From a virus (lineage: Duplodnaviria; Heunggongvirae; Uroviricota; Caudoviricetes), in the IMG/VR virus record IMGVR_UViG_2541047697_000003: a stretch of 37,528 nt of DNA. One strand, 5' to 3'. The number at the start of each line of letters is the position of its first letter. The first letter of the stretch is position 1. Below are positions 3,165 to 33,558 of this stretch, in pieces. A program made the position numbers and the translations under genes. The notes below the pieces were generated by a model that saw only the letters and a program-made list of their open reading frames with translations, was not told the DNA's origin and searched no databases.

Positions 3165-4265
3165 TCATTCCATTTCGAAATCATCAATCCTCACTTCAAG
3201 CTCCAGACTGGTTGTAAAACCGTTATCGGGGCTGACGGTATGCGTCAGAGTCGTAATGGTCCATTCCGCATCATCTATCGGCTGTTTAAAGCCACTGACC
3301 TTCACAGGCATTTCTGTGTAGAGATCTGCCCGCCCTTCCGCCAGTTGTAGCGAGAATGATGCAACGCCGCGTTGCAGGCGTTCCCACTGCATTTTCGCTG
3401 CCCGTTCAGCGTTGCTTCGGTTGGCATAAGTGCGATTAAGTACCAGCACGTTTTCATCCGTACCCACCAGGTAATCGCCCTGCTTCGCTTCTGGCTCTTT
3501 CTTCTGCTTCTTAGTTCTGCGCTTACGCTTCACCGTGGTGCTTTCTTTCTTCGCGGGTTCGCGGGTATGCAACCAGCTGGCAATTACGCCCGTGTAGGCT
3601 CCGCGATCTGCCAGGGTAAAGCGGTGACTGTCGCCGTCCTTGCGTGTGATAGTGATCACCGGCAGTGGTTTACCAGTGGCGCTTTTGCCCTGTCCCTGCC
3701 GGATGAATAACAGATTGCCATTTTTCACCGACGCGATGGCACCGTACTGGCGCGCCAGCCGCATCAGAAAACTGCCGTCACTCTCATTAGTCTGGTCTAT
3801 ATGCTCCACGGGCTTATCCGACAGGTCTTTACCCAGTGCCATCTTCAGCTTGTGACGCGCGGCTATTTCCTTCACCACTTCCCCGACAGTGGTCTTGTGC
3901 CACGATTTTTCACGGCGGGTATTCAGCGTTTCCCTAAAATCAGCACTTCGCGCCCGGATAGTCAGGCGATCCGGTGCGCCAGTGTGTTCAATCTCGTCCA
4001 CCGTGAATGCCCCTTTCGGGAAAAGCGGCTGCCCCTTCCAGCCCAGCGCCAGCGTGATGACCGCACCACGGCGCGGCAGCACGATTTTTCCGTCGGCGTC
4101 GTCCAGTTCCAGATCAAGCTGGTCTGCTTCAAAGCCCCGATTGTCCGTCAGCGTCAGACTCATCAGGCGGTTATCCAGCACAGTGGTGATATCCTTTCCC
4201 TCAATACTGATGCTGAATGCGGGAGTTTTGTTGCCTTTGTTAAGCAGTTCAGAGCTGAAATTCAC
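3165..4265 (-). CDS. D: tail protein gpD-like
   Basis: 366-aa ORF immediately after U in P2 order; GTG start overlaps the U stop (GTGA). Confidence 0.75.
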   Translation of the reverse strand: MNFSSELLNKGNKTPAFSISIEGKDITTVLDNRLMSLTLTDNRGFEADQLDLELDDADGKIVLPRRGAVITLALGWKGQPLFPKGAFTVDEIEHTGAPDRLTIRARSADFRETLNTRREKSWHKTTVGEVVKEIAARHKLKMALGKDLSDKPVEHIDQTNESDGSFLMRLARQYGAIASVKNGNLLFIRQGQGKSATGKPLPVITITRKDGDSHRFTLADRGAYTGVIASWLHTREPAKKESTTVKRKRRTKKQKKEPEAKQGDYLVGTDENVLVLNRTYANRSNAERAAKMQWERLQRGVASFSLQLAEGRADLYTEMPVKVSGFKQPIDDAEWTITTLTHTVSPDNGFTTSLELEVRIDDFEME

Positions 4266-4747
4266 GACAGCAGCCCTCCCACCGTTTTACTGATATCGCT
4301 TAAGGCAGACGTTGCCGTATCCTGCAAATTATTCAGCTGCGCACTGAGATCACCGAACATATCGGACAGGGATTCATCCACCCGTTTGAGCGACAGGGTG
4401 AACTCAATCCGGCGCGGCATACCATCGCGGAAAAACTCCGTTTTAGTCTGATTCAGTCCCTCAATCACATACATGCCGTAAATCGTGCCGCTGCCTTCAA
4501 TCAGGGGCCATGCTTTTCCCTGTTCTGCCATCTGCTCCAGAGCCAGCAACGACAGCCTGCCGCCCGTTATCTCCGGCATAAGAACACCAGAAAGCGTCAG
4601 CATGTCGTTGTCCGGTCCCAGAAACTGCATGGACGGACGTCGGTTGACCCGGCTGTTTGCCGCATGTCGCCAGCTGCGTTGATACTGCAGTTCCTGATAC
4701 GGCACAGTGCGCAGCATAAACACGTACAATCCCAGCACCATCATCAT
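4262..4747 (-). CDS. U: tail protein gpU-like
   Basis: 161-aa ORF with an ATG start overlapping the T stop; position and size fit P2 gpU. Confidence 0.85.
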   Translation of the reverse strand: MMMVLGLYVFMLRTVPYQELQYQRSWRHAANSRVNRRPSMQFLGPDNDMLTLSGVLMPEITGGRLSLLALEQMAEQGKAWPLIEGSGTIYGMYVIEGLNQTKTEFFRDGMPRRIEFTLSLKRVDESLSDMFGDLSAQLNNLQDTATSALSDISKTVGGLLS

Positions 4748-7700
4748 GCGTAGTATCCCCCCTGATCGCTGTAGTTACTCCTGGCTTTTGCCTTCAGCCT
4801 GCGTTCACGTTCATCAAGCTGGCGGGCCACCTCCCGCGCAATATCCTGCGCACTTTGTCCTGGCTGCGTCTGAATGATGATCTGCGTCGGTGCCTCAATC
4901 CGTTGAACGGGCGGCACAGTGGCTGCACGACTCACCATCGCTTCGCCGCCTTTCGAGGGAAGTGCCAAAGGATGCAACGGTGGAAGCTCTGCAGGCGCGG
5001 CAGCAACGCCCATCATTCCGGCAACAACGGCAGCCAGTGAAGCTGTATTTCTCCGGCTGGTCACATTTGCCGGGCCGTTAACAATTTCCGGCCCGTTTTC
5101 ACCGACGATGCCAAACTGCCCGCGCGGGATATAGCCGCCGCTGTCATACATCCCCGCTAAGCCATATCCCCATGACGGAAAACCACCCGATGGCATCATC
5201 ACTTTACCGTCTGCATTCACCGTCGCAGGTTGCTGACGCGTCACGCTTTCCGGCAGTTTCGCCTTTGCGGCCTCTTTACTGACAATGCCGAGTTTTTCCA
5301 GCAACCAGGATACGCCGGATTTCAGGGAGTCCAGCGGATGCATGACCATATTCAGCCCTTCCGCCAGCGCCTCCCCGAATCGTCGCCCCATTGCCGCTGC
5401 GCTCTGCAGTTCGGCAGAAGTCGACTTAACGGGCGTCAGCAAATCAGTAAACCAGCCCCACAGCGCCTGCACTTTGTCGCCAATCCACTGGAACACAGGC
5501 TTAAGCGGTTCGAATGCGGCACTGATGGGTCCTGCCGCCGCTTTGAATCCTTCCACCACGCCACCGAGAAATGCGGTGATGGGTTGCCAGTATTTCCAGA
5601 CAACCAGCGCCACGCCCGCCAGTGCAGTAACCACAAGACCTATCGGACTTAGCAGAGCACCTAACAGACCAGATATGGCATACAGGGCAACGCGCAGCAT
5701 CGCCAGCGGACCAGATGCAAGCACACGAAGCACCGCGCCTACGGCAGCCAGTCCACCGCGCAGTACCGCCAGAGGATTCATAAACATCACAGCAACAGCA
5801 CGTAAACCGGATAATCCAGACCGCAATAGTGCAACCGGCGCACCTGCTACAGTTTTCAGGACATTTCCCGTCAGTGATGCCGTACGGCGCAAAGACGACA
5901 ACGGCGTAGTAAGTAAACCTGCGGCGTTACCCGATGAAGCAAGCCCGCGTCGCAGCAGTGCCAGTGGAGCGCCAGCCAGCCAGGACAACGCGCTGCTGGT
6001 TCGTGTTACTGCTGCCGTAACGGAAGGTAACGTTTTGATACCCAGCACAGAGAATCCCAGACGGATGACTGCCAGCGGCCCCAGCACTGCAGCCAGCGCC
6101 ACAGCCAAGGTGCCGAGGCCTACGGTAACCGCAGCCACAATAGCGGCTACTTTCATCAGTGTGCCTGTCAGTTCCGGGTTAGCTTCCACCCAGCGGCGCA
6201 ACGCCCCCGTGATGCTTTTCACCGTGTACAGAATATCCATCAGCGGCTGGCGCAGCGTTTCGCCCAGGCTGCTAAAGGTGTTCTGCGCTCCGGTTTTGAC
6301 CAGCAACCACTGAGCAGAAAGTGAGTCCTTATTGATGTCGGATTCTTTCTGCATGGAGCCGAGCGCATCATTGCCCGCTGTCAGTTTTAGCTGGCGCTGC
6401 AGTTCCGGCAGGTTGTTTGCCAGTTTCGCCGCGTCATCGCCAAACTCTTTACCAAACAACATGGTCATGGCAGACAGGCGCTTATCCTGCGGCAGTGCGT
6501 TCACCTTCTCCAGTACGCGCTGGATGGTTCCCATCGCATCCTTCGTCATCTGCTTTTCAATCACTTCAGGATTGAGTTTCAGCAGATTCATCCCTTCAAA
6601 GAAACTCTTGCTTTGCATGGTGGCAATGGACAATTCACGCACCATCGCGTTTGCTGCACTGGCTGCAACCTCCGGCGCAGCACCCAGTGTCAGGAAGGTG
6701 GAACCCAGCGCCGCCGCTTTACGATAATCCAGACGATCAGCCACACCGCCCAGGCGTTGCATGACATCAATGATGTCCGCCCCTTTCGACATGGCGTTAT
6801 CATCCAGATAGTTCAGCGCATCACCGAGCTGTTCAATATTGCGGGTAGGGATTTTGTAGAGCTGGGCGATTTTCCCCAGACTTTCTGACAGCTCATCCGC
6901 TGGCAGTTCAAAGGCTGTTGCCGCCTTTGCCGCCGTGCTGGCGAAGGCCAGCAGGTCACGTTTCTGGTCTTCCCAGCTGTCGTCAGGGTTTGCGACGTTC
7001 ATGCGCGCCCCACCTTCAACCAGTGCGGCGAAGTCCACCGCACCGTTTTCCATCGGCAACTGTTCGCTGGCAGCCTTGATGGCATCCTGCATTTCATAAA
7101 AACGTGCAGTGCGGTTGCCATTATCGTCACGCAGACCATTGACCTGCTTTGCCACACCTTTCATGGCATCTTCCATGCTGGTATAGCTTTTTACTGCCGC
7201 CATCACTGGCGTCCCCATTGCCAGCCCTGCCGCCGTGGTGGTGGCTCCGACTCCTGCGATGCGATCGCGCACCTCCAGCGAACGGGCATAACTGGCACGC
7301 GCTGCATTCATCCTGCGCTGAGCTTCCCCCAGTCGCTTCAGCCGCGCCTCCTGTTTCGACAGTTCCTGGTTATAACGTGATGTTTCACGGGCTAAACGGG
7401 CAGTTGCTCCCGCATCATCTTTCGCAGAAATTCCCGCCCGGTACAGTTCAGCACGCACAAGCACCGTTTGCTTCTGCAAGTATTTTTGTTGTTCTTCCAG
7501 GCGTTGGACTGCCAGCGTTTGCCGACCTAAAGCCATAAGGTGCCGTTGTGATGGTTGTTCCATCGCCTCCAGCTCAGAGCTAAGCAAATTAGCCTTCTGT
7601 CTGGCATAGTTCAGCCTGTCGCCTAACTTCTTGTTATCGGCCTGCAGCTTGCGAAATTTTTCCAGGCTGTTACCCGCCTGATTGAGTTGCTTTAATGCGT

Positions 7701-7821
7701 CACGGGAGTTTCTGATTGCGCCAGCCAGCTCTTTCGAACTGGCCTGTGCAGCACGGAATGGGCGGGTGAGTTTGTCAACCGCATTAAGAATGACCTGCAG
7801 GCGCAGGTTATTATCACTCAT
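4744..7821 (-). CDS. T: tail tape measure protein gpT-like
   Basis: 1025-aa ORF with N-terminal coiled-coil-like charged repeats, a central Ala/Gly/Leu-rich hydrophobic block and a C-terminal domain; sits between E/E' and U. Confidence 0.85.
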   Translation of the reverse strand: MSDNNLRLQVILNAVDKLTRPFRAAQASSKELAGAIRNSRDALKQLNQAGNSLEKFRKLQADNKKLGDRLNYARQKANLLSSELEAMEQPSQRHLMALGRQTLAVQRLEEQQKYLQKQTVLVRAELYRAGISAKDDAGATARLARETSRYNQELSKQEARLKRLGEAQRRMNAARASYARSLEVRDRIAGVGATTTAAGLAMGTPVMAAVKSYTSMEDAMKGVAKQVNGLRDDNGNRTARFYEMQDAIKAASEQLPMENGAVDFAALVEGGARMNVANPDDSWEDQKRDLLAFASTAAKAATAFELPADELSESLGKIAQLYKIPTRNIEQLGDALNYLDDNAMSKGADIIDVMQRLGGVADRLDYRKAAALGSTFLTLGAAPEVAASAANAMVRELSIATMQSKSFFEGMNLLKLNPEVIEKQMTKDAMGTIQRVLEKVNALPQDKRLSAMTMLFGKEFGDDAAKLANNLPELQRQLKLTAGNDALGSMQKESDINKDSLSAQWLLVKTGAQNTFSSLGETLRQPLMDILYTVKSITGALRRWVEANPELTGTLMKVAAIVAAVTVGLGTLAVALAAVLGPLAVIRLGFSVLGIKTLPSVTAAVTRTSSALSWLAGAPLALLRRGLASSGNAAGLLTTPLSSLRRTASLTGNVLKTVAGAPVALLRSGLSGLRAVAVMFMNPLAVLRGGLAAVGAVLRVLASGPLAMLRVALYAISGLLGALLSPIGLVVTALAGVALVVWKYWQPITAFLGGVVEGFKAAAGPISAAFEPLKPVFQWIGDKVQALWGWFTDLLTPVKSTSAELQSAAAMGRRFGEALAEGLNMVMHPLDSLKSGVSWLLEKLGIVSKEAAKAKLPESVTRQQPATVNADGKVMMPSGGFPSWGYGLAGMYDSGGYIPRGQFGIVGENGPEIVNGPANVTSRRNTASLAAVVAGMMGVAAAPAELPPLHPLALPSKGGEAMVSRAATVPPVQRIEAPTQIIIQTQPGQSAQDIAREVARQLDERERRLKAKARSNYSDQGGYYA

Positions 7822-10144: not shown

Positions 10145-10711
10145 TCAGGGAGATTCATTGCTCTTATTTGCCGGAAATTTTCGATAAATTGTAGAAACGC
10201 CTACATCAAAAATCAGTGCAATACGCTGTCTTGATTCTCCGGCCTTGAGTAAACGCCCAATCTGTGCCCACTGTTCGCTGGTCAACTTAGGACGGCGTCC
10301 ACCTACTCTGCCTTTAACACGAGCTGCAGCCAGCCCTGCCCTGGTACGTTCAACTATCAGTTCGCGTTCCATTTCAGCCAGGGCACCCATGACATGAAAA
10401 AAGAAACGGCCCATTGGGGTACTGGTATCAATACTGTCAGTCAGGTTTCGGAAATTCACGCCACGCTGGCGCAACTCTTCTATCAGCGTAACAAGATGCC
10501 GCATACTGCGCCCTAACCTGTCCAGCTTCCAGACAACCAGAGTGTCTCCTGCCGATAGTGTCCTGAGCAGTTTTTTCAGCCCCGGTCTTTCGGACTTAGT
10601 GCCACTGATTTTGTCCTCAAAAATCCGCTCACATCCCGCGCAGTTCAGTGCATTACGTTGCAAATCGGTGTTCTGGTCATTTGTTGACACGCGTACATAG
10701 CCAATAAGCAT
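10145..10711 (-). CDS. serine-recombinase DNA invertase (Gin/Hin/Cin/Pin family)
   Basis: 188 aa from the ATG at 10711; N-terminus MLIGYVRVSTNDQNTDLQRNAL with the catalytic Ser, and C-terminal HTH; near-identical in pattern to Mu Gin / P1 Cin. Confidence 0.9.
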   Translation of the reverse strand: MLIGYVRVSTNDQNTDLQRNALNCAGCERIFEDKISGTKSERPGLKKLLRTLSAGDTLVVWKLDRLGRSMRHLVTLIEELRQRGVNFRNLTDSIDTSTPMGRFFFHVMGALAEMERELIVERTRAGLAAARVKGRVGGRRPKLTSEQWAQIGRLLKAGESRQRIALIFDVGVSTIYRKFPANKSNESP

Positions 10712-10766
10712 GATCAATCCCCTGAATAAATACCGGGGATGATGCCAGTTAGCCGTTACCTCTGCA

Positions 10767-16193: not shown

Positions 16194-17180
16194 ATGAAAA
16201 ATAAGAACCAGTATCAGGCTTTACTTAGAGGGAAGGTCGAATCGGCGATTGCTCAAGCCAAAAGTGCTGCAGGATTTTCCCACCAGGGTGTTAAGGGAGC
16301 TGTTCTAGAAATATTATTAAGTCAACTATTTCGACCTCTTTTGCCCGCAGATGTTGGCATCGGCACAGGGCAAATCATTGAACAGTATTCAGGAAAGTTA
16401 TCACCTCAAATAGATATTATTATTTACAATAAATCAATACTCCCTCCGATATTAATCGATGGTGCCACAGGGTTATTCCCAATAGAATCAGTTCTATATA
16501 CCATTGAGGTAAAAACCACATTAAGCTCATCGGAACTCAGCTCTGCACACTCAAGTGCAAAAGAACTTAATGAGAAATTCGGTTACTTACCTGGAATAAA
16601 AGATGAATCAGGCAAACTAATCCAACACAAAATAGAAAAACTTCGCTCGGTAATATTTGCTCTAAGTAGCGACTTATCACCAAATGGAATTACTGAAGCC
16701 GAAAGGTATAAAAAAATATACAAAGAAGACTTTCGTTACGTTACAGCAATTTGCGTTGCAGGTCGTGAGTATAGTTATGAAGATCGAGATTGCTGGGTAA
16801 CAATGCGTAATACTCAAGCGTATGATGAAATCCTTGCATTTATTGGAGGCATAACCAATACATACAAAGGTGTTTCAGAAAGTCGTGGGACACCATTGCT
16901 AGGATATTACATTGTTCCAGAGAATGTCGAACTGAGCCTTACAGCTTGTACCACACTCCCGGAATTGCAAGTTAAGTGCACGCAATGCGCTGAAACTAAA
17001 AAAATAATCCCCACCTTTGACAACGATGATGAACTAATACTAAAAAACTACACTCTTTCTGATAACAAGCCTTGTAAATGTGGTGGGGAATTTAAATCAG
17101 AAAAAGGTAATTTCACCATTAAAAATGGTCGACTGAGAGAAATAGAGTACAACGAGCCAGATCGAATTTACAAAGAGTAA
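16194..17180 (+). CDS. AT-rich cargo protein with a PD-(D/E)xK-like motif and a C-terminal Cys4 cluster (function unknown)
   Basis: 328-aa ORF with an ATG start; the only plus-strand gene in the late structural block, in the V-S slot; translation shows ...QIDIIIYNK...YTIEVKTT... and CTQC...CKCGG. Confidence 0.75.
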   Translation: MKNKNQYQALLRGKVESAIAQAKSAAGFSHQGVKGAVLEILLSQLFRPLLPADVGIGTGQIIEQYSGKLSPQIDIIIYNKSILPPILIDGATGLFPIESVLYTIEVKTTLSSSELSSAHSSAKELNEKFGYLPGIKDESGKLIQHKIEKLRSVIFALSSDLSPNGITEAERYKKIYKEDFRYVTAICVAGREYSYEDRDCWVTMRNTQAYDEILAFIGGITNTYKGVSESRGTPLLGYYIVPENVELSLTACTTLPELQVKCTQCAETKKIIPTFDNDDELILKNYTLSDNKPCKCGGEFKSEKGNFTIKNGRLREIEYNEPDRIYKE

Positions 17181-22768: not shown

Positions 22769-24535
22769 ATGAACACCACACTGACACCCGCAGATCTCGA
22801 TCCCCGTCGGCAGGCCATGCTGCTGTACTTTCAGGGATACCGCGTAGCCCGCATTGCTGAAATGCTGGGCGAGAAAGTTGCAACCGTTCACAGCTGGAAA
22901 AAACGCGACAAGTGGGGTGACTATGGGCCGCTGGATCAGATGCAGCTCACCACCGCCGCACGCTACTGCCAGCTCATTATGAAGGAGCACAAAGAAGGGA
23001 AAGATTTCAAAGAGATTGACCTGCTGGCGCGCCAGTCTGAGCGCCACGCGCGGATCGGCAAGTTTAACAATGGCGGCAACGAAGCCGACTTAAATCCTAA
23101 CGTCGCCAACCGCAACAAAGGCCCGCGCCGTCAGCCGGAAAAAAATGTCTTCACCGATGAACAGATTGAGAAGCTGGAAGAAATCTTCCATTCCTCCATG
23201 TTCAACTACCAGCGCCACTGGTGGGAAGCCGGAAAAACCAACCGCATCCGCAACCTGCTGAAGTCACGCCAGATCGGCGCGACCTTTTACTTTGCCCGTG
23301 AAGCCCTGATTGACGCCCTGCTTACCGGGCGTAACCAGATTTTCCTTTCCGCCAGTAAGGCACAGGCCCACGTCTTTAAGCAGTACATCATCGACTTCGC
23401 CAAAGAAGTGGAGGTGGAGCTGAAAGGCGATCCGATGGTGCTTCCTAACGGGGCCACGCTTTACTTCCTCGGCACCAATGCCCGCACGGCCCAGAGTTAT
23501 CACGGCAACCTGTATCTGGATGAATATTTCTGGATACCGAAATTTCAGGAGCTACGCAAAGTGGCTTCCGGTATGGCTATTCACAAGAAATGGCGGCAGA
23601 CCTATTTTTCCACACCATCCAGTCTGACCCACAGTGCTTATCCGTTCTGGTCCGGTGCGCTGTTCAACCGTGGGCGCAACAAAGCTGACAAGGTGGACAT
23701 CGACCTGTCCCACAGCAATCTGGCCCCCGGCCTGCTGTGCGCAGACGGGCAATACCGCCAGATAGTCACCGTGGAAGATGCGGTGCGCGGCGGCTGTAAC
23801 CTGTTCGACCTCGACCAGTTGCGCATGGAGTACAGCCCGGACGAATACCAGAACCTGCTGATGTGTGAGTTCGTGGACGATCTCGCGTCCGTGTTCCCGC
23901 TCAGCGAGCTGCAGGCGTGCATGGTGGACAGCTGGGAAGTATGGACCGACTTTCATGCACTGGCGCTGCGCCCGTTTGGCTGGCGCGAAGTGTGGATCGG
24001 TTATGACCCGGCAAAAGGTACGCAGAACGGCGACAGCGCCGGATGCGTGGTGGTGGCACCGCCAGCCGTGCCGGGCGGTAAGTTCCGCATTCTTGAGCGT
24101 CACCAGTGGCGCGGGATGGACTTCCGCGCCCAGGCTGACGCCATCAAAAAACTGACCGAACAGTATAACGTGACCTATATCGGCATCGACTCGACCGGCG
24201 TCGGTCACGGGGTTTACGAGAACGTGAAAGCATTTTTTCCTGCCGTCAGGGAGTTTGTCTACAACCCCAACGTTAAAAACGCCCTGGTACTCAAGGCCTA
24301 CGACATTATCAGCCACCGCCGTCTGGAGTTTGACGCCGGGCACACCGACATTGCGCAGTCATTTATGGCAATCCGTCGCGCCACCACTGCCAGTGGCAAC
24401 CGCCCGACCTATGAAGCCAGCCGCAGCGAAGAAGCCAGCCATGCCGATCTGGCCTGGGCAACAATGCACGCACTGTTTAACGAACCGCTGCAGGGCGAGT
24501 CCGCCAATACCAGCAATATTGTGGAGATTTTTTGA
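22769..24535 (+). CDS. P: terminase large (ATPase) subunit gpP-like
   Basis: 588-aa ORF with an ATG start, divergent from O. Confidence 0.9.
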   Translation: MNTTLTPADLDPRRQAMLLYFQGYRVARIAEMLGEKVATVHSWKKRDKWGDYGPLDQMQLTTAARYCQLIMKEHKEGKDFKEIDLLARQSERHARIGKFNNGGNEADLNPNVANRNKGPRRQPEKNVFTDEQIEKLEEIFHSSMFNYQRHWWEAGKTNRIRNLLKSRQIGATFYFAREALIDALLTGRNQIFLSASKAQAHVFKQYIIDFAKEVEVELKGDPMVLPNGATLYFLGTNARTAQSYHGNLYLDEYFWIPKFQELRKVASGMAIHKKWRQTYFSTPSSLTHSAYPFWSGALFNRGRNKADKVDIDLSHSNLAPGLLCADGQYRQIVTVEDAVRGGCNLFDLDQLRMEYSPDEYQNLLMCEFVDDLASVFPLSELQACMVDSWEVWTDFHALALRPFGWREVWIGYDPAKGTQNGDSAGCVVVAPPAVPGGKFRILERHQWRGMDFRAQADAIKKLTEQYNVTYIGIDSTGVGHGVYENVKAFFPAVREFVYNPNVKNALVLKAYDIISHRRLEFDAGHTDIAQSFMAIRRATTASGNRPTYEASRSEEASHADLAWATMHALFNEPLQGESANTSNIVEIF

Positions 24536-25563
24536 TGGGAAAGAGTAAGAAAAAACGCGCTGCGGCGACGAATCAGATCCAGCATAAAAACCAAACTTCA
24601 GCCGAAGCATTCAGCTTCGGTGATCCCGTTCCTGTTCTGGACCGCCGCGAACTGCTGGACTATGTGGAATGCGTACAGATGGACCGTTGGTATGAGCCAC
24701 CAGTGAGTTTCGACGGCCTGGCGCGAACCTTCCGCGCCGCCGTACACCACAGCTCACCGATTGCAGTAAAGTGCAACATTCTGACCAGCACCTATATCCC
24801 TCACCCGTTGCTCAGCCAGCAGGCTTTTTCACGTTTTGTGCAGGACTATCTGGTATTTGGTAACGCCTACCTGGAGAAACGCACGAACCGCTTCGGTGAA
24901 GTTATCGCCCTTGAACCTGCCCTGGCAAAATACACTCGACGCGGATTAGACCTGGATACCTACTGGTTTGTGCAATACGGTATGGCAACCCAGCCGTATC
25001 AGTTCACGAAAGGCAGCATCTTTCATCTGATGGAACCGGATATTAATCAGGAGATCTACGGCCTGCCTGGCTATCTTTCTGCTATTCCATCCGCTCTGCT
25101 CAACGAGTCCGCCACGCTGTTCCGCCGGAAGTATTACATTAACGGTAGTCATGCAGGCTTCATCATGTACATGACCGATGCCGCGCAGAACCAGGAGGAT
25201 GTGAACAACCTCCGCAATGCGATGAAAAGCGCCAAAGGCCCTGGCAACTTCCGCAATCTGTTTATGTACTCGCCTAATGGTAAAAAAGACGGACTTCAGA
25301 TTATCCCGTTGTCAGAAGTCGCAGCGAAGGATGAGTTTCTGAATATCAAAAACGTGAGCCGTGATGACATGATGGCTGCGCATCGTGTTCCGCCACAGAT
25401 GATGGGGATTATGCCGAATAATGTTGGGGGGTTTGGGGATGTGGAAAAAGCGAGTTTAGTGTTTGTGAGGAATGAATTATTGCCATTGCAAAAAAGGATG
25501 ATGGAACTAAATAAATGGTTAGGCCATGAAATTTTGAAATTTGAGACATATATACTTAGCTAA
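24535..25563 (+). CDS. Q: portal protein gpQ-like
   Basis: 342 aa from the ATG that overlaps the P stop (ATGA). Confidence 0.9.
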   Translation: MGKSKKKRAAATNQIQHKNQTSAEAFSFGDPVPVLDRRELLDYVECVQMDRWYEPPVSFDGLARTFRAAVHHSSPIAVKCNILTSTYIPHPLLSQQAFSRFVQDYLVFGNAYLEKRTNRFGEVIALEPALAKYTRRGLDLDTYWFVQYGMATQPYQFTKGSIFHLMEPDINQEIYGLPGYLSAIPSALLNESATLFRRKYYINGSHAGFIMYMTDAAQNQEDVNNLRNAMKSAKGPGNFRNLFMYSPNGKKDGLQIIPLSEVAAKDEFLNIKNVSRDDMMAAHRVPPQMMGIMPNNVGGFGDVEKASLVFVRNELLPLQKRMMELNKWLGHEILKFETYILS

Positions 25564-25632
25564 TCGCCATTTTTTAAAAGCCACGCCAATAATTAATATT
25601 AGAACCGTGGCTTTAATTTAGAGCATTAGATA

Positions 25633-26718
25633 CTAACGTTTCAACCAAAGGTCATCTACAGAAAACGAATCGAATTCATTCTCAGATGGAGAATAAATAA
25701 AGCTCACTGTAAAATACGGTCTAACCAAAATCTCTAAAGTCACAACGTCACCATCACCATGAGTAAATGGGAATGCCGAATCTAAATCGCTTTTATTTTC
25801 AATATAATCCAAATAAGGAATATCCACTTCAATAAAAACCCGTCTCAAATTAAAAGAATAGGCAATGTAATATTTATCCGCATCAATTGAAGTGATGCCT
25901 TCAATATAGCCATCCTCGAAATCTTCGATGACATCAACTCTAACATCCAAAACATTCGAAACTCTAGACTCAAAAATATTATTTTCAAGGTATTGACTAA
26001 GCATCATGTGATTAAAACTTGATAAATAATCGATACACTCACCTTCTAGAAACTCCTCGAAATAAGGCTCACTTCTTGCATGATCAAAAGCATGGATACT
26101 CTTATCAATAGATGATGTAACGAAGTCAAATAGCTTCCGATATGGAGTTATTTTTTGTGTTATGCCTAACTCTTCAATATCTCTTAGAAGATCATCATTA
26201 AACGTTGCAGGACCTTTACTGTTGGTAAAAAAGTCTGAGCTATTCTCAGTAATAAATACAAAATCATCATTACCCCCTGATGATTTGATATATTGAAGAA
26301 AAGATAACCAGATCAACGTATCACGGTATCCTTTTTCTTGTTCTGAGAAAGGTTTTATCTTTTCAAGGGCCCTACCAACCACCTTAGCATGTGGAATATC
26401 GTTATAATCTATTAAAATTAAATTATCAACTTCCTTATTTAATATTTCTTTCAAATCATATTGTTCAATACCTAAGTTTTCAATTTTAAAATCTATTGGA
26501 TTCTGATTAAGCTTTTTAATTTTACTAATAATGGAACGCATTTCATTTAATTGATTTTTGAGCTCTCTATTCCTGATATTGTTAGTCTCCTCAATTACTA
26601 AATTTGATAATAACAAGTCGTTACATTCATTATTCAAAAAATGGAAAAGAAGTTTAAAATTAGCATTTTTAGCAAACCAATTATTGTAAAATATATTTGT
26701 ATCCAAAAAAACTTTCAT
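25633..26718 (-). CDS. AT-rich cargo protein with an N-terminal PIN-like motif (function unknown)
   Basis: 361-aa ORF with an ATG start; N-terminus MKVFLDTNIFYNNW resembles the first acidic strand of PIN-fold nucleases; lies between Q and the putative cos. Confidence 0.7.
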   Translation of the reverse strand: MKVFLDTNIFYNNWFAKNANFKLLFHFLNNECNDLLLSNLVIEETNNIRNRELKNQLNEMRSIISKIKKLNQNPIDFKIENLGIEQYDLKEILNKEVDNLILIDYNDIPHAKVVGRALEKIKPFSEQEKGYRDTLIWLSFLQYIKSSGGNDDFVFITENSSDFFTNSKGPATFNDDLLRDIEELGITQKITPYRKLFDFVTSSIDKSIHAFDHARSEPYFEEFLEGECIDYLSSFNHMMLSQYLENNIFESRVSNVLDVRVDVIEDFEDGYIEGITSIDADKYYIAYSFNLRRVFIEVDIPYLDYIENKSDLDSAFPFTHGDGDVVTLEILVRPYFTVSFIYSPSENEFDSFSVDDLWLKR

Positions 26719-26935
26719 CTGTCTTTTCCAGTGATGTAGTTAATAACATAGGTAATTATAAATTGAATTGTAGGCCGGATCCACTGATAGTGGATCCGGT
26801 TTAAAAGATTGCATTTATGGCAATGTCAAGTATAAAAACAACCACAACATAATGATTGTATATCCAAAGGCCGTCAGTAAATCATAGCAATTATCACTTA
26901 CAGGGGATGTGCGATTTTAATCGTTCAGCCGCGCG

Positions 26936-26954
26936 CTCATATCCCCGCCACGCC
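26936..26954 (-). other. putative cos (cohesive-end) site
   Basis: Minus-strand GGCGTGGCGGGGATATGAG followed by GCGCGCGGCTGAACG, resembling the P2/186 cohesive-end sequence as remembered (GGCG-A/T-GGCGGGGAAAGCA...); reads toward Q as in P2. Confidence 0.45.
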
Positions 26955-27240
26955 TGCCCGCTTTATGTAGCGGTTTTCATGCAGGTGCATGATCTACGCA
27001 AAATCCCACCAGTTCTGGCGGGCCTTAGCAAAAACGATCCGCAAACGATCATGCGATCTCATGCGGCATAGTCATGCACTTACGGGGGAACTGAAATCCA
27101 GTAACCGAATGATCGCTTGAAAAACGAAACATACGTACTTACAAAGCACAAAGCCTGCTTTGAGCGAAGCGGACGTTAATAATGTTGCTGACCATCCCTA
27201 GTACTTCTCATAATATAGCCCTATGTTAATCAACAAAATA

Positions 27241-29133
27241 TTAATTTGTCCCATCACTAAAGAATTTGATTGCGTCAGTTAGTACATAGTCAATGAAAAT
27301 TTTTACGTGAAAGACCTGAAAAACGCTATTTTCTGAGTTTTGAATGAAATCTACAGCTATATCTTTTAGGTTGATCAACCAGTTATATTCTTCAATCAGT
27401 CTAGTTCTGGCATCCGCATCAGAATAACGACTCCGTAAGCTAAATGCCAGTTTCCTCATGATAACTGGATCAAGTTTCCTATAGCTTTCAATGAAAACAT
27501 CAGCAGGAACTAAGTGTAAAAAAGGTACGTCATGAAGATTTAACTGTCTATTATTAGAATGACTCAATTCAGATAACAACGATGATTTTCCCCTTTGTAA
27601 CTCATCTCTGAACTGCAATGCAAATTCCGAAATTGATTCATCAAACCGTTTCTTCCTTGCTATTTTAATATGTTCAATAATGAGCTTAAAGTCATCACTA
27701 TCCCTGTCAAGAAAACTTAAACTACGCCATCCCCTTAATTCGTTATAATGCGTTTGCGCATATTCCTTATGTACATCTTCAGCTCTCAGTCTATTATAAT
27801 AATTATTTATATTCTGTTTTGTCTCATTTATGAGATCATGAACATCATCTGTTGTTAGACCTTCTTTCGCCATTTCCAGCAAAATACTCGCTGTCATCAG
27901 GAGTTCACCTAAGGTAGTGATCTTACCTGAAAATAGGTTATCCTTAGCAATAGCGTACTGCTCATAAAGCATAGTTTCATTTAGTTCTCTATAGTTCCAC
28001 AAACACCTCCATGCTGGTGAATCGCTGCTTCTAAAAAAACGCGTAACATCCAACTGAGCAAGAAGATCACCCGTTACCTTTCCATCACAGATTAGTTCTC
28101 TCCAAGACGCGCCATCCAGTAACTTCTCGGTTAATACAGGAGACGAATATTTCTCGACAATCATGTCATACTTACTTTTGACGCGTTCTTTACCCAAAAA
28201 CATACCATAATTAACATTGCCGATTGAATTGAAATCCTCGTAGCTAAGATTCCCTCCCCGGTACTCCATCGAAAAAATTAACAATTGATGAAAAAACACC
28301 CTTATAAATTCATCGTTACTTAAATATTTATCTCCCAAAAGGGAAATAATTCGTTGTACATCGAGAAAGAACTGCCTCAAGTGTCTTAGATTATTATAAT
28401 TCGCTGACACATAGAGGTCCTCTATTGTCTGCATATCTTCTTTAAATATATTAGCAACATGCAAACTACTAATTACGTTCAAGAAAATCTTACAAGCACT
28501 ATGTAAATCTGACGTTACTTCAAATGTTTTACCTACTAGCTTTTCTTTTGTTCTCATGTATTCATTGCGATATTTCTCATCATCATTATTTATTCGCTTT
28601 TCTCTATTGATTATTTCATCTTCATTGGCAACCAAGATCGCTTTGTATCCGTTTACTTCCACAAAGTGATTTATATATCCAAATAAGATTGGTAAATCTA
28701 CACCAGCTCTCTCGACATCATCAAAGACCAGCACAAAACCATCTGGTTTTCTAGTAAAGTCGCTAAGATTAATGGTGGGAACATTGCTATTGATATCTAC
28801 GTCAGATTTATTATCGCCATTAAGATCGATCTTGAAAGTAGCCTTAAGCGTATTTTTTAGTACATTTGCACCAAAGATAAGGGCTTTGTTTGATAGGACA
28901 GGATGCAATTGACGATAGAACTCATCTTCAATCTGCTCAATAGAGTTGACGCCATACAAGCTCACTTTTAGAAATTTGAACTCTGAATGTTTCTGCTTAT
29001 ATTCTTCAAGAACTCGTTCAATGAACCAAGTTTTACCTGATCCCCAAGCACCTTTAAGCATAATGGCGTATTGAGGTTCAGTTTTAAGGCTAAGGTAATA
29101 TTCTATATAGTCTTTGATGTACGTATTGTGCAT
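27241..29133 (-). CDS. AT-rich cargo P-loop NTPase with a KAP-type Walker A (function unknown)
   Basis: 630 aa from the ATG at 29133 (track start is TTG at 29184); Walker A LKGAWGSGKTWF and Walker B-like FVLVFDDVER; long helical C-terminal region. Confidence 0.7.
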   Translation of the reverse strand: MHNTYIKDYIEYYLSLKTEPQYAIMLKGAWGSGKTWFIERVLEEYKQKHSEFKFLKVSLYGVNSIEQIEDEFYRQLHPVLSNKALIFGANVLKNTLKATFKIDLNGDNKSDVDINSNVPTINLSDFTRKPDGFVLVFDDVERAGVDLPILFGYINHFVEVNGYKAILVANEDEIINREKRINNDDEKYRNEYMRTKEKLVGKTFEVTSDLHSACKIFLNVISSLHVANIFKEDMQTIEDLYVSANYNNLRHLRQFFLDVQRIISLLGDKYLSNDEFIRVFFHQLLIFSMEYRGGNLSYEDFNSIGNVNYGMFLGKERVKSKYDMIVEKYSSPVLTEKLLDGASWRELICDGKVTGDLLAQLDVTRFFRSSDSPAWRCLWNYRELNETMLYEQYAIAKDNLFSGKITTLGELLMTASILLEMAKEGLTTDDVHDLINETKQNINNYYNRLRAEDVHKEYAQTHYNELRGWRSLSFLDRDSDDFKLIIEHIKIARKKRFDESISEFALQFRDELQRGKSSLLSELSHSNNRQLNLHDVPFLHLVPADVFIESYRKLDPVIMRKLAFSLRSRYSDADARTRLIEEYNWLINLKDIAVDFIQNSENSVFQVFHVKIFIDYVLTDAIKFFSDGTN

Positions 29134-29454
29134 TTTTAGTCCATTTTTATAAAATACATAAACATAGATGGTAAGTAGAGCCAAAGGCCAACTATGGAAA
29201 ATTCAATCGGTAGTGTACATTGTAAGGTTATTATTGGTAAATATTATAGGAATACCCATAATCTTACAAAATTCAGATTATCCGTTGCAAATTAGTCTGC
29301 TATTCGTTAATTGACGAAAGATAGCAGAAGAAATGTTCGCTTCTGGCACAAAGCGGACGATCACTTATAAAAATGACCGCCCACCTTACGCCTTATTTCA
29401 CTCATTGCCCAAACTAGCCCCCATCAGAGTGAATCCTCCTGGGGGCAACATTTC

Positions 29455-29688
29455 TTAATGCTGCCAGCTGTCGTCTTCCCACACCTTCTGCATAATTTTC
29501 ATCACTTGTTTTCTTTCTTCGTCCAGTTGCAGTCCGGTAAGTTCCACACCGTGAGAGCTACCTTTGCGGATACGAATTACCGTTTTGGGATACAGGGGGC
29601 GCAGATTGCGGTAAAGCTCGGATTCAAGGGCGTCTAGGATAGACTGGCTAATCTTCTGCTCTTTATCGATCATTATTTCAATGCGCAT
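29455..29688 (-). CDS. DinI-like protein (186 Tum C-terminal-like)
   Basis: 77 aa from the ATG at 29688 with GAGGTGA upstream; MRIEIMIDKEQ...LESELYRNL...IRIRKGSSHGVEL...VWEDDSWQ follows the DinI pattern. Confidence 0.7.
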   Translation of the reverse strand: MRIEIMIDKEQKISQSILDALESELYRNLRPLYPKTVIRIRKGSSHGVELTGLQLDEERKQVMKIMQKVWEDDSWQH

Positions 29689-29698
29689 AAAAGTCACC

Positions 29699-29887
29699 TC
29701 AACTGATGACATCCATTGAGCGGTTGTATTCGTGGGTTCTGATTTTTGCCATGAGTTCATCAGTCAATTCAGAAACCCACTGCAAAGCCAGCCCCTTCTC
29801 TTCATCACTACACTCACTAGCCGCTACAAGCTTAAGAAAAAAATCAATGCGCTGGAGCTTCAAAGACTCCAAAAAATAGTCCTGCAT
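29699..29887 (-). CDS. small SOS-operon protein (possible Tum N-terminal part)
   Basis: 62-aa ORF with an ATG start and strong AGGAGG, directly downstream of the LexA box; different frame from the DinI-like ORF. Confidence 0.45.
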   Translation of the reverse strand: MQDYFLESLKLQRIDFFLKLVAASECSDEEKGLALQWVSELTDELMAKIRTHEYNRSMDVIS

Positions 29888-30039: not shown

Positions 30040-30396
30040 TTAATACAGGTTCCGCCACTTATCATCTTCCTGCAAACGCTGGTTCCGATAGAAGATACGC
30101 AGGCCTGCTCCTGACGGAATACTGCCGCCGCGAAGGAGTAAATCGACCTCTTTCTCGCTACCATCAAATCCTCTGGACTTCAGTTCATAGGCGAGCTGCT
30201 GTCGCTGATGGTCTGTAATTCGCTGTTTGTAGTCTTTACGCCGTTTCGGTTTCACCAGGCGTAACCTTGCTGCCAGTTCCCGGCGCTCTTTTTTGCTCAT
30301 ACTGTGCAGGTAATCGTGCAACTCCTTGTCATCCATGCGGGTGATATCCGTTCTGGTATCCCCATCAGCTGATTTGTCTTTCCCTTGTTGGTTCAA
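30040..30396 (-). CDS. hypothetical basic protein downstream of A
   Basis: 118-aa ORF from a TTG (internal ATGs at 30336 and 30300); no clear RBS; highly charged. Confidence 0.35.
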
Positions 30397-32480
30397 ATTT
30401 TCAGCAAGGGGACAGTTATTGCCACGAGTCCAAGGGGACAGTTATTGCCACGAGTCCAAGGGGCGCAAGCGCCCTGGTCGGCTGCCGCCTCCTGAACGTC
30501 AACGGCCTTACGAACCATTTTCCACTTCACTGCATGAGTGCAGATTTTGCCCTCTGCAATGGGTGACCAGATGCCATAAATACGAATGCCGTGATCGCCA
30601 TAGGCGGTCGGCTCTTCGTTGATTTCATAAGCGGTTCTGATGAGGTGATATTTACGGGGAACCAGTACGCCGCCCTGCTTCATGATGTAGGTGGCAAAAC
30701 AACCAGCATCAGCTGCAGCCAGAATGGCATCAAGGCGCGGGTTATCCAGTACCGGCGCACCTGCTTTTTTGTCACCCTGTTGCCTTGCCACCTGACCAGC
30801 CAGCAATCGCAGTTCACGGTAAGCCTGACGCCCCGGAATGCCAAAGAAGCGGAATTGCTGAACACGATGCAGAGACGCCCAGGCATTAACGTATTCAGCG
30901 TTATCACGCAGAGATTTACCCGTTTCCTTGCTGATCTCGCCAGCCAGACCACGCCCGTCAATGTTCTTACTGATGTATTTCGCGATGTAGCTTGTCGGCG
31001 TTCCTTTGCGCGGGTTTATCAGCTCAGATTTAAAGCGTGGACCAGTGTTATTACCCAGTTCCTCGCGGTCTTCACGGATGGCAAACTTACGCAACAATGC
31101 AGTAATGGCGCGGCGGTCTTTTTTGCGCATGAAACACAACAGGTGCCAGTGAACTGTACCGTCATGATGCGGCTCAGCCACCCGCACGCCATACCAGCGC
31201 AACCCGGCTTTGTGCATCGCCTTACGAAATGCAGCAAACATGCCGACCAGATAATCGCTGCTTTGTCTTACCGTCGCATTTGTCCAGGTTGGGTTTGGTC
31301 TGCCGTTATTGAGCGTGGAATGGAAACGTGACGGACAGGTAATGGTGTAGAAAACGGCGCAGTCACCGCGCATTTCCGCGATAAGCTCCAGACCTTTAAC
31401 ACAGGCCATCATCTCATTGCGGCGGTGCGCCGGGTTGCTGCTGCTGGCGTTTACCACGTCTTCCATATCCAGCGTGTCGCCCTCTTCGTTCACCAGTTCA
31501 TGAGAACGGAAAAACTCCAGTGACTTGCGGCGCTGCTCACGTTTATGCATCACGGCTTCATAGCTGACATAGGGAGATGCTTTTTTGCTGACCAGGCAGA
31601 CAGCACGCAACTGCTCTTCCCGCCATTCGCAACGCATTTTCCATAATTTCCGGTACCACCAGTCGGCGCACAACATACGCGCCAGCGAACCCGGAATGAG
31701 TTCATAGGGCACGGGTTTACGGCGGTTTCTTTTCCGACGGAGTTGCTCAAACGCAGGCGGGATGACATCCAGACGCAGGGTTTCCGCTGCCACCTTTTCC
31801 CATGTCTTGCGGATTTCTTCTGGCTTAACGTCATCGGTGGCATACAAATCACCACAAGCTGCATCAAGGCACATGCTCATATGCGCAGCGACAAGGGTAG
31901 ACAGGCGTTTCACCTGATCCTGACTCATTTCAGGCAGAATCAGCAGGCCGTCCAGCCCTACATGGCTTGCCATAAAACGAAAAGATGCAGATAGCTGGCT
32001 GTCGCGTACATGCTCCAGTCGTTCCAGACATGGCTTAATCGTCTCACGTAAATAGCGGGAATAAGCCTTTGGCCTGCCCAGGCTGTTAAAGTATTCAATA
32101 CGTTGCATCAGCGGCTTGCTGATATGGGAGGGCTGGGCGCTGACGTCTGCCAGAATGACCATGTCCGGGTTAAAACGCTGCTGCTCATGCGCCAACTTTG
32201 CCCGGCTAATGAGCTTATCCTGCTCTATTTCGCGTTGGACAGGATCACGGGATTCATTAAAGAAATAACGCTCCCAGACCTGATCACTCAGTGCCTCGCG
32301 GCGCAGTTGTTCCTGCTCGTTATCGGCAGCGTACAGAGTGATCAGGTTTGAAAGCGCAGAAACCGGCGCAACTTCCGCCGGGTCCAGATAAGGGTTAATG
32401 GCCTTTTTCGGGCTGTTCCATGAGAACGATGCGGCAGCCTCGTTAAAGCCGCAGCAGTTGCTCATATCGGCATGGCTCAT
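30393..32480 (-). CDS. A: replication initiation endonuclease gpA-like (rolling-circle, HUH-Y family)
   Basis: 695-aa ORF; HWHLL (HUH-like) and SYIAKYISK tyrosine motifs; ATG overlaps the dam stop. Confidence 0.9.
30405..30474. repeat. tandem direct repeat (2 x 26 bp plus a partial third copy) followed by a 14-bp palindrome, inside the 3' end of gene A
   Basis: caaggggacagttattgccacgagtc at 30405-30430 and 30431-30456, then caagggg; then gggcgc-aa-gcgccc at 30461-30474. Confidence 0.8.
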
Positions 32481-33334
32481 GCACGTACTCCGTACACGGC
32501 AGAACTATCCACGCCACGCGAATAATCAAATCCCACCCAGCAGCGCGGCCCGGAAACAGCAATGATTTCTGTTGCTGATTTACTCTCACCAGCTGCTACG
32601 CCGATGCTGCGTTTTACCTTGATATAGTGGTGAGTAAAATTGCGATACAGCGAACGGATCAGGGATGTGTCACTGTTAGAAACAATGACCGGATGTCCTT
32701 CTGATGACCGATGTTCAAGAACGGATGCCAGGTGATACTGGTCATCTTCAGTAAAGCCGTCAGCGTGATAGCCGGAAAACGTACCGTCATAAGGCGGATC
32801 GCAATACACCACATCCCCCGCCTTCAACATCGCCAGCGTTTCATCAAAGCTGGCGCAGATAAACGTTGCTCGCTGGGCTTTTTCTGCAAAAGCGCGAATT
32901 TCTTTTTCAGGGAAATACGGATTTTTATAATTACCGTAGGGAATGTTGAAATGCCCGCTCTTGTTATAGCGACATAACCCACGGTAACCGTGACGATTGA
33001 GATACAGGAAATATACCGCTTTCATGAAATCAGTAATTTCAGTTGAGTAATTAAACTCCTGCCTTATGTTGTAATAAGCCACCTCCCTGTTTGCGATCTC
33101 AAATAAAACTTTGGCGCGAGATATAAACGATTCACAATCAGCGGCAACCTTTTTATAGAGGTTGATTAAATCAGGATTAATATCCGCAACCAGATAGCAG
33201 GGATAATCCGTCTCCATCATCACAGCACAGGAACCCGCGAAAGGTTCAACTAGTCGCGGACCAGCAGGAAGATGTTTTTTCAGTTCGGATATTACGGCGG
33301 TTTTATTTCCCGCCCATTTCAGGATGGTGCTCAT
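32477..33334 (-). CDS. dam: DNA N6-adenine methyltransferase (Dam-like)
   Basis: 285 aa from the ATG at 33334 with GGAGGTG upstream; [16 protein letters not shown] (AdoMet motif) and DPPY catalytic motif. Confidence 0.85.
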
Positions 33335-33558
33335 ACAGCACCTCCGTTGTAATGTTTGCCTTTCAGCTCTGCGATTTCCTGACAGGTAATGCAAAGCTGC
33401 ACACCCGGAATGGCACGGCGGCGTGCTGGCGGAATTGGCGCTTCACACTCAACGCAAAGCACGCGGGACACGCCCGGCGTTTTGGCACGGGCAGCACGGA
33501 TATGGCGCTGGCGTTCTTCTTCAACGCGCTGCTGTACGAGATCCATTGCATCAGCCAT
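33331..33558 (-). CDS. TraR/DksA-family C4 zinc-finger protein
   Basis: 75 aa; CVECEAPIPPARRRAIPGVQLCITCQ, i.e. CxxC-N17-CxxC. Confidence 0.7.
   Translation of the reverse strand: MADAMDLVQQRVEEERQRHIRAARAKTPGVSRVLCVECEAPIPPARRRAIPGVQLCITCQEIAELKGKHYNGGAV

Follow-up and report, generated by a model that had tools for sequence, protein, structure and literature searches.

What might be the role of a very AT-rich gene that lies between the portal gene and the cohesive-end site (cos) of a P2-like prophage? The question is raised by IMG/VR record IMGVR_UViG_2541047697_000003, a stretch of 37,528 nucleotides that is referred to here, at its full length, as the window. The window is a segment of an Escherichia coli chromosome, the first 2.7 kb being 100% identical to the grxA-ybjM-ybjL region, and it contains a complete P2/186-like prophage with tail and capsid genes, P, Q, A, a Dam-type methylase, a CI repressor and an integrase. 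The gene in question encodes a 361-amino acid protein of the PIN_12 (DUF4935) family and is self-contained, horizontally acquired cargo of this prophage, situated in the cos-proximal gpA-gpQ hotspot. The chances are about even, in our estimation, that it constitutes a one-protein anti-phage system of the superinfection-exclusion or abortive-infection kind, in which a latent PIN nuclease is regulated by an acidic C-terminal domain and cleaves RNA upon infection. The gene and the two parts of its product are placed as follows.

25633-26718, minus strand: PIN_12 (DUF4935) family gene (Pfam PF16289), 361 amino acids, ATG start, N-terminus MKVFLDTNIFYNNW
26104-26718, minus strand: N-terminal PIN nuclease domain, residues 1-205, with a long helical insert at residues 39-96
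25636-26103, minus strand: helical linker and acidic NTF2/cystatin-like C-terminal domain, residues 206-361

A preliminary description of the locus had given the cargo gene a span of 25564-26760, which does hold the interposed gene but also takes in intergenic DNA on either side of the minus-strand frame listed above. The GC content of the region (0.32-0.34 over 25501-27000, against 0.52-0.61 in the flanking phage genes; 32% for the gene alone, compared with ~55% in the phage core) sets the gene apart from its surroundings, and the 1086-nt frame remains open throughout this stop-rich, AT-rich DNA. A chance origin of the open reading frame (ORF) is excluded by the length of that open frame, by the strength of the PIN_12 match and by the existence of 174 mostly full-length homologues.

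The family assignment comes from Pfam, where residues 3-163 match the PIN_12 profile (PF16289, formerly DUF4935) over positions 1-172 of 172 with a score of 96.9 bits against a cut-off of 32 (E 2.3e-27). The AlphaFold2 model, which has a predicted local distance difference test score (pLDDT) of 93.8 and a predicted template modelling score of 0.86, is a high-confidence prediction of the PIN fold, in which helices lie on either side of a central parallel sheet, and it agrees with solved VapC/PIN structures. The closest solved folds are VapC toxins, and most of the close matches are RNases; PcrIIC1, a PIN protein that acts with Cas9 on DNA, is also among the top fold matches. An alignment of 70 homologues with 36-91% identity shows no variation at D6, E44, D133 and D162, and D180, E128 and the motif EKGYRDTLIWLS (residues 128-139) are likewise invariant or nearly so. 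The protein would thereby appear to be a PIN nuclease with a complete set of catalytic metal-binding acids, and the PIN-like character that had been suspected from the N-terminus is borne out by profile, predicted fold and conserved acids together. No match at E <= 1 was obtained when the family profile was compared with the sequences of solved structures, nothing significant was found for the protein in NCBIfam, and BFVD yielded one structural relative.

The 174 homologues were collected in a search of 5.8 billion proteins and mostly align over their full length, the best being 91% identical. Nearly all among the 120 homologues listed are 357-371 amino acids long and are aligned over 96-100% of the query, and they come from Enterobacter, Aeromonas, Vibrio, Pseudomonas, Azotobacter, Pseudoalteromonas and Geomonas as well as from metagenomes. 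Alignment columns are on average less conserved in the C-terminal part (0.50) than in the N-terminal part (0.62). DUF4935 was described by Matelska et al. in 2017 (PMC5499597) as a family of about 350 amino acids with an N-terminal PIN-like domain of the VapC group, conserved acids, a long helical insert after strand 2 and an alpha/beta C-terminal region, usually encoded monocistronically and with its function listed as unknown. All of these features, from the size to the monocistronic habit, are seen in the window protein and its gene. The present analysis adds the NTF2/cystatin-like fold of the C-terminal region, the sharing of that region with S1 peptidases and the placement within a phage defence hotspot.

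The part of the protein that follows the PIN domain had been described as acidic and lacking a recognisable partner domain. The first half of this statement stands, with 32 Asp and Glu residues against 11 Lys and Arg in the 156 residues of the C-terminal half and a whole protein that is acidic overall. The second half needs refining, as the C-terminal 150 residues form a discrete alpha+beta domain of the NTF2/cystatin-like type, modelled at a pLDDT of 94, that is also found in S1 peptidases. An exhaustive phmmer search with this domain against 1.84 billion representatives returned 56 proteins, in all but one of which the domain lies at the C-terminus of a PIN_12 protein or of a truncated fragment. 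The exception, a protein labelled P0160, carries the domain after a Trypsin_2 domain; when compared by hhalign with the PIN-family domain it is matched with a probability of 98.8% (E 8e-17), and the FEG(L/M)ED, NLRRV and RPYF motifs align. Relatives of P0160 number more than 200, are ~476-500 amino acids long and are found in Halomonas, Aeromonas, Vibrio, Serratia, Enterobacter, Pseudomonas, Rhizobium and Bacteroidota. A local hmmsearch, using a profile made from PIN-family C-terminal domains only, detected the full domain in 104 of the 120 S1-peptidase relatives listed. A profile search with the C-terminal-domain alignment gave just four proteins, and the results reported here are those of the exhaustive phmmer search and the local hmmsearch.

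Both families share the acidity of the domain (mean -16) together with E221, E265, G266, E268, D269 and R333 and the E-G-x-E-D / R motif. Since the same C-terminal domain ends more than 100 trypsin-like S1 peptidases, the effector is exchangeable, and the pairing of a constant domain with alternative hydrolases is the pattern to be expected if a sensor or regulator has been fused to an effector. Moreover, because the motif is kept regardless of the effector, the domain is likely to have a binding function of its own rather than to act as a plug for two unrelated active sites. The protease domain of the sister family resembles the PADLOC protease effectors LmuA and RT-Protease_XI, and one S1-peptidase member adjoins Hachiman, while another is located on an element with umuDC-like genes. 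Lamassu, whose LmuA occurs in nuclease and protease variants, likewise combines a constant module with interchangeable effectors. In contrast to Lamassu, the window protein has no SMC/ATPase partner, and the part that stays constant is its small, acidic NTF2/cystatin-like domain, for which PADLOC v2 has no matching model.

A broader suggestion, which we put forward tentatively and consider possible rather than probable, is that the PIN_12 and S1-peptidase proteins with this C-terminal domain make up one undescribed class of single-protein immune sensors. The conserved acidic domain (E-G-x-E-D ... R) would recognise some signal of phage origin, perhaps by mimicking DNA towards a basic, nucleic-acid-binding phage protein, and would then activate the fused PIN RNase or trypsin-like protease. 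Stand-alone versions of the domain, which might have represented a split toxin/antitoxin form, were considered and rejected. Of the three candidates, P0171 is the mis-called start of a full-length 370-amino acid gene, P0157 is a truncated and frameshifted remnant, and P0163 looks like a remnant disrupted by an insertion sequence (IS), as it has no PIN part and directly follows a transposase gene. In Geomonas (locus L017, 5061-5885) a gene for a 274-amino acid Trypsin_2 protein is found immediately upstream of the PIN_12 homologue, which is of interest given that elsewhere the PIN_12 C-terminal domain occurs in fusion with Trypsin_2 proteases.

The second line of evidence is the position of the gene, which is framed by the following features.

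22769-24535, plus strand: terminase gene P
24532-25563, plus strand: portal gene Q, a 343-amino acid ORF after P with its stop at 25563; left border of the cargo slot
26927-27080, no strand assigned: conserved cos block, right border of the variable slot, kept in E. coli ML35 and Klebsiella phage Kp4849-2
26936-26954, minus strand: cos cohesive-end-like sequence GGCGTGGCGGGGATATGAG, aligned to P2 cosL (NC_001895, 1-19)
27241-29184, minus strand: KAP-family NTPase gene on the other (A) side of cos (Pfam KAP_NTPase 1.7e-20; PADLOC PDC-S49 8.7e-157)
29455-29760: DinI gene
30393-32480, minus strand: gene A

The order is thus Q, PIN gene, cos, KAP, DinI and A, which places the PIN gene beside cos in the gpA-gpQ interval, between the portal gene and the replication gene A. 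The final ~165 bases of Q are ~90% identical to the 3' ends of genes annotated as 'phage portal protein' in E. coli prophages, and the P2/186-type cohesive-end sequence GGCGTGGCGGGGATATGAG agrees with the annotated P2 cosL, GGCGAGGCGGGGAAAGCAC, in 12 of the first 13 bases. From the stop codon of Q to cos the distance is 1372 bp in the window versus 167 bp in P2, where the interval holds the tQ terminator only and no intervening gene. That an AT-rich gene of ~1.1 kb had been interposed between Q and cos was correctly recognised in the preliminary description. The borders of the slot were drawn from an alignment of the window with E. coli ML35, Klebsiella phage Kp4849-2 and one metagenomic relative; conservation begins at ~26927, which is ~10 bp from the cohesive-end sequence in the direction of Q, and reaches ~27080 on the A side, and the content on the Q side differs between phages. 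The exchangeable module is therefore about 25565-26926. The Q side of cos evidently tolerates cargo to within ~10 bp of the cohesive-end sequence, the conserved packaging signal stretching out in the A direction only.

The gpA-gpQ interval beside cos is an established defence hotspot of P2-like phages (Rousset et al. 2022, PMC9122126; Vassallo et al. 2022, PMC9519451; and a 2026 preprint). PIN_12 appears repeatedly in the supplementary table of Rousset et al. among the arrangements of the E. coli P2 hotspot, although PIN is not among the systems validated in the main text (PMC9122126). The E. coli PIN_12 proteins listed there are WP_000920989, WP_000920990 and WP_021513009. As with the P2 hotspot cargo genes old, tin and PARIS (PMC9122126, PMC9519451), the PIN gene lies at this locus, has a foreign composition, is exchanged between relatives and forms a single compact unit; its place on the Q side of cos sets it apart from old and tin, which are on the A side.

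The same Q-cos slot is occupied by other genes in close relatives. In Klebsiella phage Kp4849-2 (OK490403.1), whose late genes are 95% identical to those of the window prophage, it holds Lamassu, with an LmuA that has a Cap4 nuclease domain (E 1.7e-142) and an LmuB (E 2.3e-253) at 3926-6653. The Kp4849-2 record is unannotated and marked 'UNVERIFIED', yet has a complete Lamassu pair between cos and Q. In E. coli ML35 the slot (3237-3908) encodes a 223-amino acid hypothetical protein, WP_000885505, for which no Pfam or PADLOC match was found and which is accompanied by the KAP NTPase; this combination is present in many E. coli P2-like prophages. The content of the slot hence varies among close relatives and includes a known defence system.

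The gene itself is also found with changing company. The 91% and 65% identical homologues adjoin Q in P2-like prophages in which the other neighbours differ, an Aeromonas homologue is in a P2 remnant, and one from Vibrio parahaemolyticus forms an integron cassette by itself, with a Shedu cassette nearby. Other homologues lie near ThsB-TIR/MazG_C/HigB, near SIR2-HerA and a type I restriction enzyme, or near a PDC-S31-like gene, and some are found among ParE, HigB, CbtA and YjhX toxin genes and in integron arrays. With no conserved neighbour in seven homologue families, with convergence on Q and with cos lying between it and KAP, the gene is monocistronic and moves as a single gene, its homologues standing alone in P2 hotspots, an integron cassette and defence islands. 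It is not a core phage gene, in agreement with the earlier assumption, being absent from P2 and from the INPHARED phages, and neither megablast nor blastn found a match to it in 5426 complete E. coli genomes; the same genomes gave no blastn match to a distant PIN_12 gene of an E. albertii plasmid. Two of the homologue loci have further peculiarities. The prophage with the 91% homologue (JGI metagenome 3300048919) is in decay, with the integrase split into four ORFs, a fragment only of gene A, an IS insertion and a truncated cos block, and the PIN gene is intact. In the prophage with the 65% homologue, three co-oriented genes on the A side (5586-7793 of loci L008/L009) encode proteins of 368, 147 and 214 amino acids without a Pfam or PADLOC match, and may represent an undescribed three-gene system.

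The gene is predicted to be transcribed on its own account, and several candidate control elements surround it.

25577-25614, no strand assigned: hairpin that separates the converging Q and PIN genes and resembles a terminator on either strand, arms 25577-25585 and 25606-25614
26755-26760, minus strand: perfect -10 hexamer TATAAT of a candidate promoter, 37 nt upstream of the ATG
26775-26799, no strand assigned: perfect palindrome CCGGATCCACT-ATC-AGTGGATCCGG with 11-bp arms (z-scores -5.9 and -6.3), candidate operator or insulating hairpin
26801-26829, minus strand: second promoter-like site, TTGACA-17 nt-TTTTAA, upstream of the palindrome and with a weak -10

Q on the plus strand and the PIN gene on the minus strand converge, so that the PIN gene is opposite in orientation to the late operon and is therefore outside the late P-Q transcript. 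Downstream of the PIN gene comes the hairpin and then Q. The hairpin had been noted previously, and its 9-bp stem proves to be exact (AAAGCCACG / CGTGGCTTT), with a 20-nt loop that is atypical for a terminator. The predicted RNA fold has an energy of -17.7 kcal/mol on the plus strand and -21.0 kcal/mol on the minus strand, with z-scores of -4.8 and -4.4 and none of 200 shuffles as good, and on the minus strand, which is that of the PIN gene itself, the stem is followed by UUUUAAAAAA. The -35 hexamer that pairs with TATAAT is TGGATC, which agrees with the consensus at 3/6 positions and is located within the palindrome. Upstream of the 91% homologue the palindrome is present with 2-3 mismatches, and it is absent upstream of the 65% homologue. 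Flanked by the two promoter-like sites, it is 137-179 nt from cos, a spacing that can be set beside the 141-162 nt between the P2 tQ terminator and P2 cos. Its role might be that of an operator or an insulator, or it might have been left over from the ancestral Q terminator. The TATAAT and TTGACA sites were read directly from the letters. As consensus promoter and terminator scans listed none of these elements, their promoter, operator and terminator roles are putative. The proposal that the gene is an independent transcription unit, converging on Q and with promoter-like and terminator-like elements of its own, nevertheless holds as a prediction.

The surroundings of the gene were searched for a partner. 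Among ORFs of at least 20 amino acids in 26719-27240, only frame artefacts of the palindrome or ORFs spanning cos were found, and the gene is therefore, as had been supposed, a lone one with no credible small antitoxin ORF beside it. VapC of the type II VapBC systems is ~130-150 amino acids long, in contrast to the 361 residues, ~60-residue helical insert and extra C-terminal domain of the window protein, and neither a VapB-type antitoxin gene nor a DNA-binding partner adjoins the PIN gene. Nor were tandem repeats of the type III, ToxIN-like kind apparent, as Tandem Repeats Finder reported only a 16-nt, two-copy repeat inside Q, and Rfam gave no match in 25000-29500.

The KAP NTPase across cos was also considered, and a single-gene KAP system called 'Reve' has recently been validated in P4 satellites (2026 preprint). 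The expectation that homologues of the PIN gene would co-occur with KAP failed, and a partnership was rejected in favour of KAP as separate cargo: no KAP gene lies near the seven homologue families, in ML35 KAP occurs without PIN and with a different Q-side gene, and cos separates the two in the window. The sole other instance of the PIN and KAP pairing that was found is an IMG/VR copy (L031) with a 7.3-kb region 98% identical to the window and a PIN protein that is 100% identical; it belongs to the same prophage lineage and is thus not independent. One PIN_12 and KAP arrangement in the table of Rousset et al. involves a different PIN_12 protein. The listed TTG start of the KAP gene is probably ~17 codons too early, as the profile match begins at residue 18-19.

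How could such a lone protein act? In the lysogen, the PIN protein would be made from its own promoter and be harmless, with regulation or sensing as the task of the C-terminal domain. Infection by a competing phage would release or activate the PIN domain, which would cut RNA (tRNA, rRNA or mRNA, as PIN enzymes of the VapC group do), whereupon translation would stop and the infection would fail. An abortive-infection or toxin role of this kind is suggested by context, and the defence role, the RNA target and either sensing or autoinhibition by the C-terminal domain are all proposed in that conditional sense. The nearest counterpart is DS-3 (DeWeirdt et al., bioRxiv 10.1101/2025.01.08.631726), a one-protein PIN system without an antitoxin that defends E. 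coli and requires its catalytic residues. Both are single proteins with a PIN nuclease and no antitoxin, and autoinhibition until infection has been proposed for DS-3. The PIN domain of DS-3 is described as split between the N- and C-termini, whereas that of the window protein is contiguous and N-terminal with a separate domain after it, the two having been compared by description only.

Several points weigh against an anti-phage function. None of the 5027 models of PADLOC-DB v2.0.0 was matched by the window protein at E <= 1, the homologues P0005 and P0060 were without a PADLOC v2 family at E <= 0.01, and PHROG gave nothing significant (all E >= 0.016). Our search of the literature found no experimental test of DUF4935/PIN_12. 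The substrate could be either RNA or DNA, RNase activity being what we infer. The evidence from context is drawn from a small and non-random set of loci, and several of the homologues are in toxin-antitoxin-rich arrays that would fit a selfish toxin equally well. We also know of no precedent for a strongly acidic domain acting as a phage sensor.

The selfish-toxin alternative, in which a PIN toxin would be neutralised in cis by the acidic C-terminal domain, or by an antitoxin that has escaped recognition, and would stabilise the prophage, cassette or island as an addiction module, is in our view unlikely. It would account for the resemblance to VapC toxins and for the homologues that sit among toxin genes and in integron arrays, and it is helped by the fact that cystatin- and latexin-type folds are enzyme inhibitors and that the domain is attached to two different hydrolases. 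However, a stable inhibitor that is covalently fused to its toxin gives no post-segregational killing unless the two decay differentially, and no antitoxin ORF upstream or downstream, DNA-binding domain or RNA repeat was found. The motif common to the PIN and protease families points instead to a function of the domain itself, and the slot is exchanged with bona fide defence systems.

It is equally improbable, to our mind, that the protein is an anti-phage nuclease of the PIN-like/FEN-like kind that attacks incoming phage DNA or replication intermediates and spares the host. Position and context argue for this as strongly as for the RNA-cleaving system favoured here, the PIN-like superfamily includes DNA flap nucleases, and PcrIIC1 is among the best fold matches. 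The balance is tipped by the membership of DUF4935 in the VapC structural group (PMC5499597) and by the predominance of RNases among the close fold matches, as well as by the acidity of the protein and the lack of a DNA-binding or helicase module.

A part in the prophage's own cycle, whether in turnover of host RNA during lytic growth, in processing near cos or in competition with P4-type satellites, is very unlikely. The gene is immediately beside cos and the packaging genes, and the cos signal is common to P2 and P4 (PMC9122126). Against this, it is absent from P2, the INPHARED phages and the E. coli genomes searched, the slot is filled by unrelated genes in close relatives, the gene runs against the direction of the late operon, and homologues exist in chromosomal islands and integrons of non-enteric bacteria with no P2 context. 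The least probable explanation of all, a non-functional passenger decaying after horizontal transfer, might be read from the foreign composition and from the decayed setting of the 91% homologue, where the integrase and A genes of the prophage are in fragments. Against it speak the intact 361-codon frame with all catalytic and signature residues kept, the IMG/VR copy with its identical protein and 98% identity over 7.3 kb, and the true remnants of the family, which are truncated and frameshifted.

The DUF4935/PIN_12 family, the hotspot and the presence of PIN_12 within it are already on record. New are this rare allele, located on the Q side of cos, the assignment of a fold to the C-terminal domain, its sharing with the S1-peptidase family and the direct slot equivalence with Lamassu. 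If the gene does protect against phages, a function would be provided for a family that was classed as unknown in 2017 and is missing from PADLOC v2, and the defence repertoire would grow by at least 56 representatives of the family (at 50% identity) from across Proteobacteria. The C-terminal domain would then be a handle for finding further systems, its presence on a protease family pointing to a reusable regulatory or sensing module. As a compact single-gene candidate of 1.1 kb, the gene is easy and cheap to test.

Three other genes of the window deserve mention. At 10145-10717 on the minus strand, beside the tail-fibre assembly genes, lies a Hin/Cin-type invertase gene that would be a host-range switch, and at 32477-33394 on the minus strand, beside gene A, an orphan Dam-like N6-adenine methyltransferase (PADLOC oMTase 9e-111). 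Finally, an AT-rich island (GC ~0.39) inside the tail-gene block carries a gene for a 328-amino acid protein (16194-17180, plus strand) that matches Pfam DUF6602 and, in PADLOC, PD_DExK (6.6e-32) and a NucC-like nuclease (7e-14). This site is the second (Z/fun) defence hotspot of P2 (Vassallo et al., PMC9519451), and to judge from these matches the gene is probably another defence cargo gene.

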